DNA of 6,540 bases from a virus (lineage: Duplodnaviria > Heunggongvirae > Uroviricota > Caudoviricetes). The translations under genes and the position numbers were made by a program. Location of the stretch: the IMG/VR virus record IMGVR_UViG_2698536307_000009; one strand, 5' to 3'. This document shows, piece by piece, positions 24 through 6,540 of this stretch. Numbering within the stretch: the stretch's first letter is position 1; each line of letters starts with the position of its first letter. The notes beneath the pieces were generated by a model, which was not told the origin of the DNA, did not search any database, and saw only the letters and a list, made by a program, of their open reading frames with translations.

Positions 24-142
24 GATTCGATGTGTTTGCGGGAAAAAAATCGGCCCAGATCCGAGAAATTTTAATCAGCGAGTCAGCTTGGGAAGAAATG
101 ACCTGCTTATTCGCACCTTCCATAGAATTTATATGTTTTACC

Positions 143-718
143 CTACGGCAGTGCTGGCCATTCAATATCCGGTGCAGTTGATGTATCAACACGGTTCAGC
201 AACACCCGATACTTTTTCCAGGCTTCCAGCAACAAGGTTTCTTCCTCCGTTGCGATCTCCAGATCCACAGCATCCTGAAGCGGCGCTATATGCTCACTGG
301 CTATCTGCATCAGGCTGTTTTTTGTTTCTTCCGCCTCCCGGATCCGGAACAGTTTTTCTGCTTCCGTATCCTTCACCCAGGCTGTGCCGTTCCACTTCTG
401 ATATTCCCCTCCCGGCGATAACCAGGTAACATTTTCCGGTAACGGACCGAGTTCAGAAATAAATAACGCGTCGCCGGAAGCCACGTCATAAACCGTTTTA
501 CCCCGATGATCTTCAACGAGATGCCACGATGCCTCATCACTGTTGAAAACAGCCACGAAGCCTGCCGGAATATCTGGCGGTGCAATATCGGTACTGTTTG
601 CTGGCAGACCTGTATGAGGCGGAATATATGCGTCACCTTCACCAATAAATTCATTAGTTCCGGCCAGCAGATTATAAATTTTTATGGTCCGTGGTTGTTC
701 ACTCATTCTGAATGCCAT
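143..718 (-). CDS. tfaQ: Tail fiber assembly protein (lambda Tfa family), 191 aa
   Basis: 191-aa ORF; translation [35 protein letters not shown]...DIEWPALP matches lambda Tfa and the K-12 TfaQ/TfaR paralogs as I recall them. Start overlaps the upstream stf stop (TAATG). Symbol assigned from Qin-like gene context. Confidence 0.9.
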
Positions 719-1026
719 TACGCAAGCCTCACAATATAGTTAAATGCGATGTTTTTGACGGTGTTTTCCGCGTTACCAGCAGCGTTAACGGTGATGGTAT
801 GTCCATGTGAACCAATCGCAACGGAGTGCGTATGAGCACCAATACCGACAGTATGTGCGTGTGCACCTGCGCTTGCAGCAGTACCCGATACAGAGTGCGT
901 ATGAGCGCCTGCAGAAGAAGTGTTAACACTGTATTTAGAATAATCAGGTGATCCACTTCCCGGAGCACCACTGGAACCACCTGAAACAAATGTCATCGAA
1001 TGGGTATGTGCACCGGCTGTCCCCAT
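718..1026 (-). pseudogene. Side tail fiber (Stf) C-terminal fragment, remnant lacking its N-terminus
   Basis: 102-aa ORF with GAHTHS/HxH repeats typical of the distal receptor-binding tip of lambda Stf-like fibers. Begins at an internal ATG directly at the junction with J-derived DNA; translationally coupled to tfa. Confidence 0.7.
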
Positions 1027-2360
1027 GCATTTACCGCCCGGACTGTCAGCCTGTAATTTCCCAGCGCCAGCTGCGTGAAGCGATATGTGGTTTCCGTCGT
1101 CCGGGCCGTGCTGACCAACCGCTCACTGCCGTCGTCCGCTGCCACGGTCAGGCGAAGCATAAAGCTCACCCCCTTCACCACCTTCGGCGTGTCCCAGCGC
1201 GCCAGCACCTGGTATTCCCCGCTGTCTGCGGTGACTTCTGCGGTCAGGTGCTGAACTGCTGGCGGCGTGACACCATTCACCGTGCCGCTCTGGTCACCGT
1301 CAAAGTGCGCCCCGTTATCCACGATGGCTTCTTTCTCCGGTACATGCTGCACGGCAGTGATGGCATACGTACCGTCATCGTTCTCACGGATACTCACACA
1401 GCGGAACAGGCGCTGACGCAGCGTCGGCAGCTTCAGCCCCCACACGCTGTACTCGGCAACGCCGTCAGGAACCCGGCTCACTTTCACCTTCACGCCGTCG
1501 GTGACGGACTGGACCTCCACGCTCACCGGATTACCCTGCCCGTCAACCAGGCTTATCAGCGTGGTGCCGGAGGATGGCAGCGTGATTTCACGGTCGAGCG
1601 TCAGTGTCCGCGTCTGGCTGTTCACCGCCAGCACGCGCCCGCCGATGCTGATCCCCGCATAGTCATCATCACAGATTTCAATGACATCACCTGGTACATG
1701 GCGAAGCCCTTCGGCACCCACGCTGAAGTCCACGGTCTGCGTTTCCAGCAGTTCCGTTTTAATCAGCCACAGCCCGGCTCGGTGCGCCTGCCCCCGCCTG
1801 GTACAGCCAAAGGCATCCATCTTCGTGACGTTACGACCGTAACGGGCAATGGCCTGCGTGTCCTCCACAAGCTCTGTCGCCGTCTCCCAGCCGTTATCCG
1901 GGTCAATCCAGTTCACCTCAACGGCATTATGGCGGTCCTTCAGGGCGCTGAAGCTGTAGCGGAACGGCGCGCCATCATCCGGCATCACCACATTACTGCG
2001 GTTATAGGTCCACACCTTATCTGATGGTCGGTCCTGCACGAACGTCAGCGTCTGCCCGTTCCATACCGGCATACAGCGCATCGCCGAGCAGAAATCACTG
2101 AGAACATCCCACGCCTTACGCTGTGTGGTCAGCCAGGCATTACAGGTGATGCGCGGCTCCGTGCCGCCAAAACCGTCCGGCACCGACTGGTCGCAACACT
2201 GGCCGATGACATACAGCGCCCATTTATCCACATCTGCCGCACCAAGACGTTTACCCATGCCGTAGCGCGGGTGGCTGGAGATCTGTCTCGCTGGCCTGCC
2301 GCAGTTCTTCAACTTCCCGGCGCAGCTTTTCGTTCTCAATTTCAGCATCCCTTTCGGCAT
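993..2360 (-). pseudogene. Internal fragment of lambda J-like host specificity (tail tip) protein; J homology roughly 1017..2271
   Basis: 455-aa ORF; from YGMGKRLGAADVDKWALYVIGQ to [14 protein letters not shown] it matches the central part of lambda J (about residues 330-770 of 1132 from memory). The first ~28 codons are Nu1 DNA read out of frame; the last 7 codons (PVHIPIR) are stf DNA read out of frame. Confidence 0.85.
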
Positions 2361-2508
2361 ACCATTTTATGACGGCGGCAGAATCATAAAGCACCTCATT
2401 ACCCTTGCCACCGCCTCGCAGAACGGGCATTCCCTGTTCCTGCCAGTTCTGAATGGTACGGATACTCGCACCGAAAATGTCAGCCAGCTGCTTTTTGTTG
2501 ACTTCCAT
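2251..2508 (-). pseudogene. Terminase small subunit Nu1 homolog, N-terminal fragment (85 aa, winged-HTH DNA-binding domain retained)
   Basis: MEVNKKQLADIFGASIRTIQNWQEQGMPVLRGGGKGNEVLYDSAAVIKWYAERDAEIENEKLRREVEELRQASE matches lambda Nu1 residues 1-~77; after DLQP it diverges (PALRHG-stop) where J-derived DNA is fused, near plus 2271/2272. Native start codon and upstream cosB are intact. Confidence 0.85.
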
Positions 2509-2519
2509 TGTTCATTCCA

Positions 2520-2730
2520 CGGACAAAAACAGAGAAAGGAAACGACAAAGGCCAAAAAGCCCGCTTTCAGCACCTGTCGTTTCCTTTCTTTTCAGGGGGT
2601 ATTTTAAATAAAAACATTAAGTTACGACGAAGAAGAACGGAAACACCTTAAACCGGAAAATTTTCATAAATAGCGAAAACCCGCGAGGTCGCCGCCCCGT
2701 AACCTGTCGGATCACCGGAAAGGACCCGTA
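2520..2730. other. Lambda-type cohesive end site: cosB (2520-2685, with Nu1-binding R-like elements), cosN (2686-2697), cosQ side (2698-~2730)
   Basis: Plus 2686-2697 AGGTCGCCGCCC is the reverse complement of the lambda 12-nt cohesive end GGGCGGCGACCT. Flanks match the lambda left end (CGCGGGTTTTCGCTATTTATGAAAATTTTCCGG...) and right end (...CGACAGGTTACG) as recalled. Elements with the GTTTCC core are visible between cosN and the Nu1 start. Confidence 0.85.
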
Positions 2731-2896
2731 AAGTGATAATGATTATCATCTACATATCACAACGTGCGTGGAGGCCATCAAACCACGTCAAATAATCAAT
2801 TATGACGCAGGTATCGTATTAATTGATCTGCATCAACTTAACGTAAAAACAACTTCAGACAATACAAATCAGCGACACTGAATACGGGGCAACCTC

Positions 2897-3130
2897 ATGT
2901 CAACGAAGAACAGAACCCGCAGAACAACAACCCGCAACATCCGCTTTCCTAACCAAATGATTGAACAAATTAACATCGCTCTTGAGCAAAAAGGGTCCGG
3001 GAATTTCTCAGCCTGGGTCATTGAAGCCTGCCGCCGGAGACTGTGCTCAGAAAAAAGAGTTTCTTCTGAAGCAAACAAAGAAAAGAGTGACATTACTGAA
3101 TTGCTCAGAAAACAGGTCAGACCAGATTGA
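2897..3130 (+). CDS. ynfO: Small basic protein YnfO-like (77 aa), predicted ribbon-helix-helix (Arc/MetJ-like) DNA-binding fold
   Basis: ATG-initiated 77-aa ORF in lambda right-end-like DNA. Basic N-terminus (KNRTRRTTTR), then a strand-helix-helix pattern (NIRFP / NQMIEQINIALEQKG / NFSAWVIEACRRRL). Position and size fit K-12 Qin ynfO; the fold is inferred from the pattern only. Confidence 0.65.
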   Translation: MSTKNRTRRTTTRNIRFPNQMIEQINIALEQKGSGNFSAWVIEACRRRLCSEKRVSSEANKEKSDITELLRKQVRPD

Positions 3131-3187
3131 AGCAATTTAGATAATCGTGCAGACTACGCCCCCTCATATCACATGGAAGGTTTATCT

Positions 3188-3598
3188 ATGGATCAGGTAG
3201 TCATTTTTAAACAAATATTTGATAAAGTTCGAAACGATTTAAACTATCAATGGTTTTATTCTGAGCTAAAACGTCACAATGTCTCACATTACATTTACTA
3301 TTTAGCCACAGAGAATGTTCATATTGTATTAAAAAATGATAATACAGTGTTATTAAAGGGCCTAAAAAACATTGTGTCTGTCAAATTTTCAAAGGATAGG
3401 CATCTTATAGAAACGACCTCTAATAAGCTGAAATCCAGAGAGATCACATTTCAGGAATACAGAAGAAACCTTGCTAAAGCAGGAGTTTTTCGGTGGGTTA
3501 CAAATATCCACGAACAAAAAAGATATTACTATACCTTTGATAATTCATTACTATTTACTGAAAGCATCCAGAAAACTACACAGATCTTACCACGCTAA
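3188..3598 (+). CDS. ydfO: YdfO/YbcV family protein (DUF1398), 136 aa
   Basis: [34 protein letters not shown]...QILPR. Start placed at ATG 3188, which has a GGAAGG Shine-Dalgarno 7 nt upstream (3175-3180); the in-frame ATG at 3173 has none. Confidence 0.85.
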
Positions 3599-3606
3599 AC
3601 CATAAC

Positions 3607-3635
3607 GTCCGGCTTCTCTCACTCCTGAGCCGGAC
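3607..3635 (+). terminator. Hairpin 9 nt after the ydfO stop (possible terminator, weak U-tract)
   Basis: Perfect 8-bp inverted repeat GTCCGGCT...AGCCGGAC with a 13-nt loop, followed by TGCATTGGTTTAAT. Confidence 0.3.
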
Positions 3636-3700
3636 TGCATTGGTTTAATAAAAACCATCAACAATTGTGATTTAGATATTCGGAACCATTCAAATATAAC

Positions 3701-3723
3701 AAAACCCCGTAAAAACGAGGTTT
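3701..3723 (-). terminator. Possible bidirectional terminator between convergent ydfO and gnsB
   Basis: Minus strand AAACCUCG-UUUUUA-CGGGGUUU: stem with one G-U wobble, flanked by A and U runs, about 30 nt after the gnsB stop. Confidence 0.25.
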
Positions 3724-3749
3724 ATGGATAAATTTTATTATTGAATACA

Positions 3750-3923
3750 TCAGATTAAATTAATCTTGACATCATAGCTTTCAAGACCCGTCATTTTTTC
3801 CCGTGCGGTAAACTGAATACTGGTAACTTCTTTCCCGGTCTTTTTCTTAAGTTCAATAATTTTTTTTGTTATATATTCAGAAATATCTGCTTCTGCTTTT
3901 GTTTTTAAGTTTTCAATATTCAT
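3750..3923 (-). CDS. gnsB: GnsB (GnsA/GnsB family small protein, 57 aa)
   Basis: Not in the supplied ORF track (below its size cutoff). Minus-strand translation is MNIENLKTKAEADISEYITKKIIELKKKTGKEVTSIQFTAREKMTGLESYDVKINLI. AAGAGGAA Shine-Dalgarno immediately upstream. Family and symbol from recalled GnsA/GnsB sequence and Qin gene order. Confidence 0.8.
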   Translation of the reverse strand: MNIENLKTKAEADISEYITKKIIELKKKTGKEVTSIQFTAREKMTGLESYDVKINLI

Positions 3924-3965
3924 CATTTCCTCTTTTAGTCTGTTATGACTTTCCAGTTACACAGT

Positions 3966-4000
3966 AAGTCGATTATATGGTGCAAACGTGTAAAAGATAA
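3966..4000 (-). promoter_or_regulatory. Candidate sigma70 promoter for gnsB
   Basis: Perfect -10 TATAAT (minus strand, plus 3977-3972) about 50 nt upstream of the gnsB start; the -35 at 17-bp spacing is weak (TTATCT). Confidence 0.3.
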
Positions 4001-4094
4001 GATGAAACATCGCAATAATCAACATACGATAGTCTAAATTTTACACAAACAGACAAAGAGAATTTTCCTGAATTATCAATGCAATAGCATCAAA

Positions 4095-4250
4095 TCAACT
4101 CAAGAGCCTTATTGCTGCTTCCAGAATTTCTTCTGAAGTAACATGTCGATCCGCGGCTACATAAATGACTTTATGATCTCCGGTCAGAGATGGAAACCCT
4201 GCGGCCATTACAGTAAGGTGTGTTTTTTCGCCATTTGGATATTCACGCAT
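4095..4250 (-). CDS. ynfN: YnfN-like small protein (51 aa if started at MREYPNGEK; alternative in-frame ATG at 4325 gives 76 aa)
   Basis: Open frame ending at 4095; the track's start at 4367 is TTG. The ATG at 4250 has GGAG 11 nt upstream and gives the 51-aa length I recall for K-12 YnfN. The minus-strand terminator at 4370-4389 leaves little room for a promoter ahead of the upstream starts. Confidence 0.5.
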   Translation of the reverse strand: MREYPNGEKTHLTVMAAGFPSLTGDHKVIYVAADRHVTSEEILEAAIRLLS

Positions 4251-4369
4251 GATGGTGTTAACTCCAGTCATCGCTGGCACTACCACTGCTGGTTCAGAGT
4301 TAAAAAAAACTATGATTTTTTTCATGATGTTACCGTAGTATGTGAGTATCCATCGAATAGACACCAAGC

Positions 4370-4389
4370 AAAAAAGCTCCCGAAGGAGC
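4370..4389 (-). terminator. Intrinsic terminator between cspI and ynfN
   Basis: Minus strand GCUCC-UUCG-GGAGC (GC-rich 5-bp stem, UUCG tetraloop) followed by UUUUUU; plus 4376-4389 stem-loop with the A-run at 4370-4375. Confidence 0.6.
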
Positions 4390-4596
4390 CTTCATTTTCA
4401 CTTTTTTAAATCCAACGACAGACGGCTGGCATTTAAGTATTGTGAAATATTATCAAATGTAATCATCATTGATTTACAAAAGATACATTTTGCCCCGAAA
4501 GGATTCATGTCAGAAACATCAAAAGATGATGTTCTATACTGGGAACCATGACAACACGGGCATCTAAAGTGAATATGGTTTGTAATATTGTCTACC

Positions 4597-4809
4597 TCAA
4601 AGCGCCACTACATGAACAGCGGCAGGACCTTTAGGTCCGTTCTCAATACCAAATTCAACTTCCTGATTCTCAGTTAATGTTTTGAAATCGTTGCTCTGAA
4701 TTGCTGAGAAATGGACAAACACATCTTTGCTGCCATCTTTCGGCGTGATGAAACCAAAACCTTTTTCAGGGTTAAACCATTTCACTAAACCAGTCATTTT
4801 GTTAGACAT
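4597..4809 (-). CDS. cspI: Cold shock protein, CspA family (70 aa), CspI-like
   Basis: [70 protein letters not shown] carries the RNP1 (KGFGFI) and RNP2 (VFVHF) motifs. Shine-Dalgarno AAAGGTAATAATT-ATG resembles cspA. Neighbours fit K-12 Qin cspI. Confidence 0.93.
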
Positions 4810-4989
4810 AATTATTACCTTTTGAAGAAATTAGCCCTTGGGCAGAATGGTCCGAAAAAAAATATCAGAGAGAAAAACCAACAAGGAAATCTCAAGAGGT
4901 ACAAATAATAAAATTATAACAATGACTGCTTCAGATAAATTTGTAACAAACCAGAACACCATTAACGCATGATTAACCACCCATAGCAA
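4810..4989 (-). promoter_or_regulatory. cspI promoter and long 5' leader with cold-box-like element
   Basis: Minus strand: -35 TTGCTA (plus 4989-4984), 17-bp spacer, -10 GTTAAT (plus 4966-4961), resembling cspA TTGCAT/CTTAAT. Predicted leader about 145 nt; GGTTTGTTACAAAT near its 5' end resembles the cspA cold box. Confidence 0.45.
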
Positions 4990-5171
4990 GGATTACTTTT
5001 GTAAAGAAAAACACAGCAATGAAAGAATGGCTTTATTTATTAATAAAACGTGTCATTCTGATTAAGACCTTTTATCTTACCCTTAAGATTTCAGGAATTT
5101 TGGCTCATGGAAGAGTCCTTTTTATTTAAATTTTACATTCCGCGATGTAAATGTTCCGATTTAATATTACC

Positions 5172-6195
<1,024 letters not shown>

Positions 6196-6199
<4 letters not shown>

Positions 6200-6425
6200 A
6201 GATATTTATGATGAGGACGCTCGTGCTTATTGGCAGGATTTTCAATCTTAAAGGAGTACTGATGCTGCAGATAAGACTCAACTTTTTCTGACAATTTTTC
6301 TGCTACTTCCAGGAAGACTTGCCGGACGCTCCTTCTGGCTGCTGCCTCATAAAACTCCAGCGCAGCTCCTTCAACACGGTCCATGGCGACATCCAGGTCA
6401 AAAATTTCACCGTCAAAGCGTTCTT
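6196..6425 (-). CDS. ydfR: YdfR-like protein, 5'-truncated by IS1 insertion (likely pseudogene); first ATG at 6384 gives 62 aa
   Basis: Frame is open from the stop at 6196 to the IS1 boundary at 6425/6426 with no start codon except the internal ATG at 6384, which lacks a Shine-Dalgarno. Position between the endolysin and where the holin would lie fits ydfR. Stop overlaps the rrrQ start (ATGA). Confidence 0.5.
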
Positions 6426-6540
6426 GGTAATGACTCCAACTTATTGATAGTGTTTTATGTTCAGATAATGCCCGATGACTTTGTCATGCAGCTCCACCGA
6501 TTTTGAGAACGACAGCGACTTCCGTCCCAGCCGTGCCAGG
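6426..6540 (-). mobile_element. IS1 insertion sequence, terminal 115 bp including the right inverted repeat; element continues beyond the window
   Basis: Plus 6426-6455 GGTAATGACTCCAACTTATTGATAGTGTTT is the IS1 right-end inverted repeat; the following sequence matches the IS1 3' region in reverse complement as recalled. Confidence 0.9.
6441..6540 (-). CDS. insB: IS1 transposase InsB (InsAB') C-terminal end, partial at window edge
   Basis: Minus-strand translation ends ...[19 protein letters not shown]-stop, with the stop codon at plus 6441-6443. Confidence 0.8.

Follow-up and report, generated by a model that had tools for sequence, protein, structure and literature searches.

A truncated lambda-type nu1 gene next to a cos region in a Qin-type cryptic prophage of Escherichia coli: probably a passive deletion remnant

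The stretch of DNA analyzed here, 6,540 nt long and called the window below, carries part of a Qin-type cryptic prophage. Positions 122-6428 are 99.95% identical to NZ_CP059723 (E. coli BUCT2930), where PGAP annotates the Qin region beside ydfJ, and positions 2272-6428 are 99.7% identical to Qin of MG1655. The gene order is that of Qin (tfaQ, stf, nu1/nohA, cos, ynfO, ydfO, gnsB, ynfN, cspI, rzpQ, rrrQ and ydfR); the ydfJ flank itself lies outside the window and was seen in the matching region of NZ_CP059723. The tail-fibre, J and terminase pieces are all PGAP pseudogenes (“incomplete, partial in the middle of a contig”), and the stretch of interest here, a truncated nu1 (nu1′), is labeled in NZ_CP059723 as the pseudogene “terminase small subunit, missing C-terminus”. 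Among the other occupants of the window, ydfO (DUF1398; 3173-3598, plus strand) matches PHROG 413, “head protein”, at E=1.1e-85, but the gene belongs to the moron region that separates the lysis genes from cos, and this label looks doubtful. Rfam reports IS009 (221 bits) within tfaQ at 177-375 on the minus strand and the cspA thermoregulator (113 bits) over the cspI leader at 4570-4955, also on the minus strand.

Insertion sequences border the locus on both sides. At one edge, an IS1 end (6429-6540), a 100% match to the IS1B end in locus L001, removes the 5′ part of ydfR, a gene that in the uninterrupted locus corresponds to window positions 6196-6507. A Q-dependent late promoter normally drives nu1; the IS1 inside ydfR cuts the late operon, and the lysis genes, cos and nu1′ are therefore disconnected from the Q-dependent promoter region present in related genomes. 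At the other edge, the end of an IS5-family element (1-121) lies 21 bp past the tfaQ stop codon, where related genomes carry pinQ. The same stretch adjoins an ISKpn26/IS5-like transposase gene in locus L009, and the terminal repeat GGAAGGTGCGAATAAG, read at 106-121 on the minus strand, is presumably the IS5 end. The pairing of IS5 and IS1 borders found in the window occurs in none of the complete E. coli genomes of the collection.

The nu1′ open reading frame (ORF) occupies 2251-2508 on the minus strand; in the program's ORF list it starts with ATG and encodes 85 residues, MEVNKKQLADIFGASIRTIQNWQEQGMPVLRGGGKGNEVLYDSAAVIKWYAERDAEIENEKLRREVEELRQASETDLQPPALRHG. A residue-by-residue alignment finds residues 1-79 identical to those of lambda Nu1 apart from a single change, A75T, and residues 80-85 are PALRHG, followed by a stop codon, and come from out-of-frame J sequence. 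Nucleotide identity to lambda is ~98% over 427 nt, which puts a chance resemblance out of the question. The Pfam family Phage_Nu1 (PF07471) aligns residues 1-81 with positions 1-81 of its 164-position profile (E=1.4e-48), and PHROGs assigns the ORF to phrog_57, the small-terminase group. [quoted passage not shown] The residues that form the TerS dimer interface (PMC6739421), I11, F12, G13, S43, A44, I47 and A51, are all kept when the sequence is read directly. The first-pass annotation had described a truncated Nu1 with its native start, leader and whole DNA-binding domain but without the oligomerization and gpA-interaction region, and this anatomy holds up on each count: the bases just 5′ of the ATG are the same as in lambda, the Pfam alignment begins at profile position 1 and residues 1-68 are identical to 1J9I, and homology is lost downstream, with profile positions 82-164 absent. 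Only two amendments are needed: the Nu1 portion, given there as residues 1 to about 77, ends at residue 79 in the alignment, and the strand, which that annotation leaves unstated, is minus.

Measured against the Nu1 family as a whole, the ORF has the N-terminal wHTH/dimerization domain and lacks both the central oligomerization domain and the C-terminal domain that binds gpA (TerL). It is preceded by cosB, as in lambda, but gene A is deleted and J from codon 281 onward comes next; the ORF is thus a fragment of a family member and not a working one. It shares with lambda gpNu1 (TerS, PF07471) the ATG, the leader, the cosB sites R1-R3 and the wHTH/dimer domain, and differs in having lost residues 80-181 and gene A and in being joined to an internal J fragment. 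Similar N-terminal pieces have been made in the laboratory: gpNu1 ΔE68, gpNu1 ΔK100 and TerS(1-98) form soluble dimers and underlie the NMR (1J9I) and crystal (6HN7) structures (PMC6739421). Those fragments are engineered, whereas the ORF in the window is a natural deletion product with a six-residue foreign tail, and its expression is only hypothetical.

The region upstream of nu1′ is close to that of lambda throughout. The leader (2509-2697, minus strand), which holds cosB and the cohesive end and measures 190 nt from the cohesive end to the ATG, differs by four substitutions and a 1-nt deletion. Using subsite names that we assign from the established lambda literature, the R1 core (2533-2544) and the inverted R2 core (2578-2589), which together form the inverted repeat I1, are intact, and R3 (2634-2644) has its first base changed from C to T; the 12-nt cohesive end, GGGCGGCGACCT, aligns at 2686-2697. 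Beyond it, positions 2698-2734 on the minus strand reproduce without change the terminal ~37 nt of lambda (48466-48502), the right-end segment that contains cosQ. Thus cosQ and cosN are the same as in lambda, and cosB is nearly so.

Immediately next to this right-end sequence lies a Fur box, GTAGATGATAATCATTATC (2735-2753), which matches the consensus at 16 of 19 positions and is identical in lambda (48447-48465) and in K-12; phage lambda itself therefore has a strong Fur site beside cosQ. In the window the box sits 233 nt upstream of the ORF, between the divergent ynfO and cos/nu1. The K-12 site at −233 of nohA was recovered by in vivo Fur selection and gel-shifted by Fur, and Chen et al. had picked it for the gel assay as a potential Fur-controlled promoter using a sigma-70 information model (PMC2189734). 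An FNR ChIP-seq summit coincides with the same coordinate (PMC3688515). Since the box binds Fur in vitro and may mark a Fur-controlled promoter, transcription under iron limitation is conceivable; the Fur and FNR results, though, report protein binding and stop short of a transcript, and the site might just as well act on ynfO. On the nu1 strand, a scan with a simple consensus found no promoter between the ORF and ynfO, its sole match near the ORF on that strand (2411-2383) lying inside the ORF.

Downstream, nu1′ ends at a deletion junction (2272-2274) that BLAST and a three-way alignment place between lambda nt 427, in nu1 codon 79, and nt 16347, in J codon 281. By BLAST, window positions 2272-2697 correspond to lambda nt 427-1 and positions 1013-2274 to nt 17608-16347, so that the two segments overlap by 3 bp (CCA on the minus strand), which reads as the signature of a microhomology-mediated illegitimate deletion. 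Lambda nt 428-16346 are missing at the junction, ~15.9 kb that comprise the remainder of nu1, all genes from A to I and the opening quarter of J. The same event created a 455-codon chimeric ORF (993-2360, minus strand), which starts at an ATG in the nu1 +1 frame, reads ~30 codons in that frame and runs on in the J frame through residues 281-702 (J homology, 1013-2274), with the Pfam domains Phage-tail_3 and Ig_J. PGAP labels it the pseudogene “host specificity protein J, missing N- and C-terminus”, and it is likewise only a deletion remnant. At a second break, J codon 702 is joined to the C-terminal part of the side tail fibre gene (stf); in this J-to-stf junction (898-1026), ~100 nt match neither lambda nor K-12 stfQ and extra tail-fibre repeats of the GAHTHS type are encoded. 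The end of the J fragment at this junction recurs in other Qin variants (P0034 and P0076), so the J-to-stf junction predates the nu1-to-J deletion.

In absolute terms the allele is common. Of 5426 complete E. coli genomes, 59 have its exact junction (NCTC10973 and BUCT2930 are carrier strains), and the exact 85-residue protein is indexed in 2226 blocks of an assembly collection. No GTDB species-representative genome contains the 36-nt junction in exact form. In all ten contexts that were read the protein occupies one and the same locus, with IS1 or IS5 insertions nearby that differ among lineages. Eleven carrier loci compared with the window show 34 differences in ~69 kb, each locus being at most 0.1% divergent; we conclude that this is one young allele spread by descent. 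There are no differences in nu1′ among the 11 loci where ~1.4 would be expected, and the pseudogenized J fragment is equally unchanged; at a divergence of 0.1% or less, selection cannot be judged either way. Other carriers have additional IS1 copies in gnsB and ynfO, an IS5-type insertion close to gnsB, or a J fragment that is broken once more (L015:2065-4543, L011:2473-3453 and L014:6081-6596). The region around the stub is still decaying, through the J-stf deletion and through IS1 and IS5 insertions.

Related prophages have reached similar states by other routes. In MG1655 Qin, NohA consists of Nu1 1-176 fused near stfQ, with no J fragment. In L008, a third variant of Qin, lambda nt 703 is joined to nt 17300, yet the J-to-stf junction is that of the window. 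The Qin nu1 stubs thus differ in length and junction, and the structural genes must have been lost by several independent deletions. NohA (Qin) and NohD (DLP12) of K-12 are the nearest named counterparts of nu1′: the Qin prophage, the position after ynfO and cos, and the Fur box at −233 are shared, but K-12 NohA keeps Nu1 1-176 as the product of an independent deletion, whereas the allele in the window keeps 1-79 together with a J segment that K-12 lacks. Two reports on nohA are uninformative here, one a mutant phenotype from a boric-acid screen that could not be complemented, and the other a 7-bp insertion in nohA carried by a phage-resistant MG1655 derivative.

We posit that the ORF is, very probably, a nonfunctional remnant of a lambda-type nu1 gene in a Qin-type cryptic prophage, made by one illegitimate deletion. 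A single event across the 3-bp microhomology would have taken out the whole interval from nu1 codon 79 to J codon 281, and cosQ, cosN, cosB, the leader, the ATG and codons 1-79 would survive because they lie outside it; the frame would then run six codons into out-of-frame J before it meets a stop. We infer that the stub, whose anatomy, junction, locus, inheritance as a single allele and decaying surroundings can be read off directly, has no selected function. No observation speaks directly against this reading, but three features keep a function possible: the native start with its leader, the self-folding, self-dimerizing 1-68 domain, and the Fur box. The 1-68 domain of Nu1 folds and dimerizes on its own (PDB 1J9I; PMC6739421), and if a transcript crossed the stub, a soluble, dimeric wHTH peptide of 85 residues could arise, although nothing suggests that it would be relevant to the cell. 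Nor does anything in the sequence evidence point to an anti-phage role, and by that measure the stub appears ordinary. The ORF is already recorded as a pseudogene in RefSeq/PGAP; as found, it has little significance beyond adding another decayed gene to a well-known cryptic prophage.

A different emphasis is that the intact cos region with its Fur box is what matters at this locus, the stub being a bystander: a lambda-type terminase brought in by an infecting phage would cut the chromosomal cos and thereby promote recombination with the phage or the packaging of adjacent DNA. Productive packaging needs a second cos ~38-51 kb away, however, and this requirement, along with the changed first base of R3, weighs against a packaging role. 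Conversely, the near-identity of cosQ, cosN and cosB to their lambda counterparts fits such cutting, and so does the work of De Paepe et al., who found recombinants of lambda with DLP12 to be ~100-fold commoner than those at other prophage loci, with half of the lambda x DLP12 junctions adjoining cos (PMC3945230). We regard this role for cos as improbable, yet it holds up better than any function proposed for the stub; it is also compatible with the remnant explanation and is no true alternative to it.

Two further models would have the stub interfere with incoming phages, and even jointly they command only a small probability. In the first, full-length TerS brought in by a phage would pair with the DNA-binding domain of the stub, and the resulting heterodimers, short of one oligomerization/gpA arm, would reduce terminase assembly in the manner of the Rpp proteins of phage-inducible chromosomal islands (PICIs). 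Lambda TerS homodimerizes through α1 (I11, F12 and G13) and α3 (S43, A44, I47 and A51), and RppC blocks phage by replacing the second DNA-binding domain (PMC6739421); the conservation in the ORF of every one of these interface residues, a point that the first-pass annotation does not raise, makes such poisoning more plausible than occupancy of cosB. Rpp of E. coli PICIs (EcCICFT073 type) is a known means of interfering with lambda-type packaging through TerS (PMC6739421), and the stub resembles it in being a TerS-fold wHTH able to occupy the TerS dimer interface. The likeness goes no further, since Rpp proteins are island-encoded, 139-154 residues long, specific in recognizing a PICI cos and equipped with C-terminal dimerization helices α4-α6 (PMC6739421, PMC9026076). 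We rejected the ORF as a PICI Rpp: it has 85 residues, is ~99% lambda Nu1 and lies beside a lambda-type cos among Qin neighbors. Rpp gains affinity through its own C-terminal helices (PMC6739421), which the stub lacks; expression of the stub is only hypothetical, lambda grows on K-12 despite NohA and NohD, and a literature search found no report of a truncated small terminase acting as a defence. Poisoning is for these reasons very unlikely. A fuller version, in which the stub would be made under iron limitation from a Fur-controlled promoter in the lambda right-end sequence, form dead-end heterodimers with incoming TerS and lower the burst, strikes us as just as doubtful. If it were true, a prophage relic would be a minimal Rpp-like packaging inhibitor, and simple truncation of a phage gene would yield a defence of the PICI Rpp type, linked to iron status through Fur.

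The second model is the one raised by the first-pass annotation, which had speculated that the stub, if expressed, could occupy cosB without assembling terminase and so interfere with the packaging of incoming lambdoid phages. The expressed protein would act as a decoy on the R sites of incoming lambda-type DNA, gpA would not be recruited and packaging would be blocked, all of which requires that the protein be expressed, that the isolated domain bind cosB specifically and that it prevail over the TerS of the phage. The complete DNA-binding domain, the native start and the leader are in place, and the Fur-bound site upstream could permit expression. Yet gpNu1 itself binds the R sites weakly, and a fragment that contains the DNA-binding domain binds specific and nonspecific DNA about equally (Murialdo and Feiss review, PMC9026076). 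Competition would also be uneven, as a single-copy, poorly expressed gene would have to outcompete TerS made late by the phage. Classic cosmids such as pHC79 carry a cos fragment that ends at the lambda BglII site, nt 415, and helper lambda packages them in vivo; nu1 codons 1-75 are therefore present at high copy in cells where packaging nevertheless succeeds. The sequence confirms a BglII site at lambda nt 415, and a literature search for the cosmid BglII cos fragment returned nothing. K-12, which has NohA and NohD with a similar upstream region, still supports lytic growth of lambda on MG1655, and the nu1 gene of DLP12 is functional once recombined into lambda (PMC3945230). The consensus scan gives no promoter, IS1 severs the late operon, the ORF is a by-product of a microhomology deletion and a PGAP pseudogene, and its carriers are too alike to reveal any selection. 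Occupancy of cosB as a block to lambdoid packaging is thus left unsupported: binding by the domain is nonselective in the literature, lambda grows on K-12, the operon is cut and the gene is a pseudogene. We judge it slightly less probable still than the poisoning of TerS.

Least credible of all is that the stub was recruited to serve as a small independent wHTH regulator akin to excisionases, MerR or Mad1 of MADS, since the ORF remains ~99% lambda Nu1 and shows no sign of drift to a new role. The PADLOC profile mad1 (a 60-residue MADS protein, PDLC04133) does match residues 1-55 (E=3.8e-12), and MerR, HTH_17 and excisionase PHROGs match weakly. Both Pfam scores fall under the gathering thresholds, however (MerR, 18.3 bits against a cut-off of 28.2; HTH_17, 18.2 against 27), and membership of these excisionase-type families was rejected. 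MADS membership was rejected as well: the mad1 profile stands alone, there being no other mad gene or PADLOC match among the five window ORFs scanned, this one and four others. Mad1 is, like the Nu1 DNA-binding domain, a small wHTH protein, and the two have a detectable common profile; with the other MADS components absent among the scanned ORFs, the likeness is at the level of the fold and the match therefore reflects a shared wHTH architecture.

A separate pattern emerged when full-length lambda Nu1 was used as the query and Nu1::X fusion ORFs were counted among the proteins fetched from E. coli assemblies. Public assemblies carry many different fusions of this kind, and among the proteins fetched the Nu1 sequence is left exactly after I169 in 37 cluster representatives and after P170 in another eight, the neighboring codons having one or two exits each. 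At the DNA level, the left end falls at lambda nt 697-703 (Nu1 codons 168-171), at the Shine-Dalgarno sequence of gene A, with overlaps of 2 to 12 nt; examples are L006:3501-3510, L007:3501-3510 and L008:5503-5514. Neither a homology boundary in an intact relative nor a strong DNA hairpin was found at this site. The site is absent from the window, where those nu1 codons are deleted. The pattern resembles a deletion hotspot whose left end is fixed and whose right ends vary, and points to an unrecognized hotspot of breakage or joining at the nu1/A boundary that may interest researchers of prophage decay more than the stub itself. In public E. coli genomes, ~30 different deletions begin within four codons of Nu1 codon 169, joining it to ~30 different partners that include the tail terminator U, FI, the major capsid protein E, the portal, Lom, J, Tfa, a Big_2 protein and an integrase.
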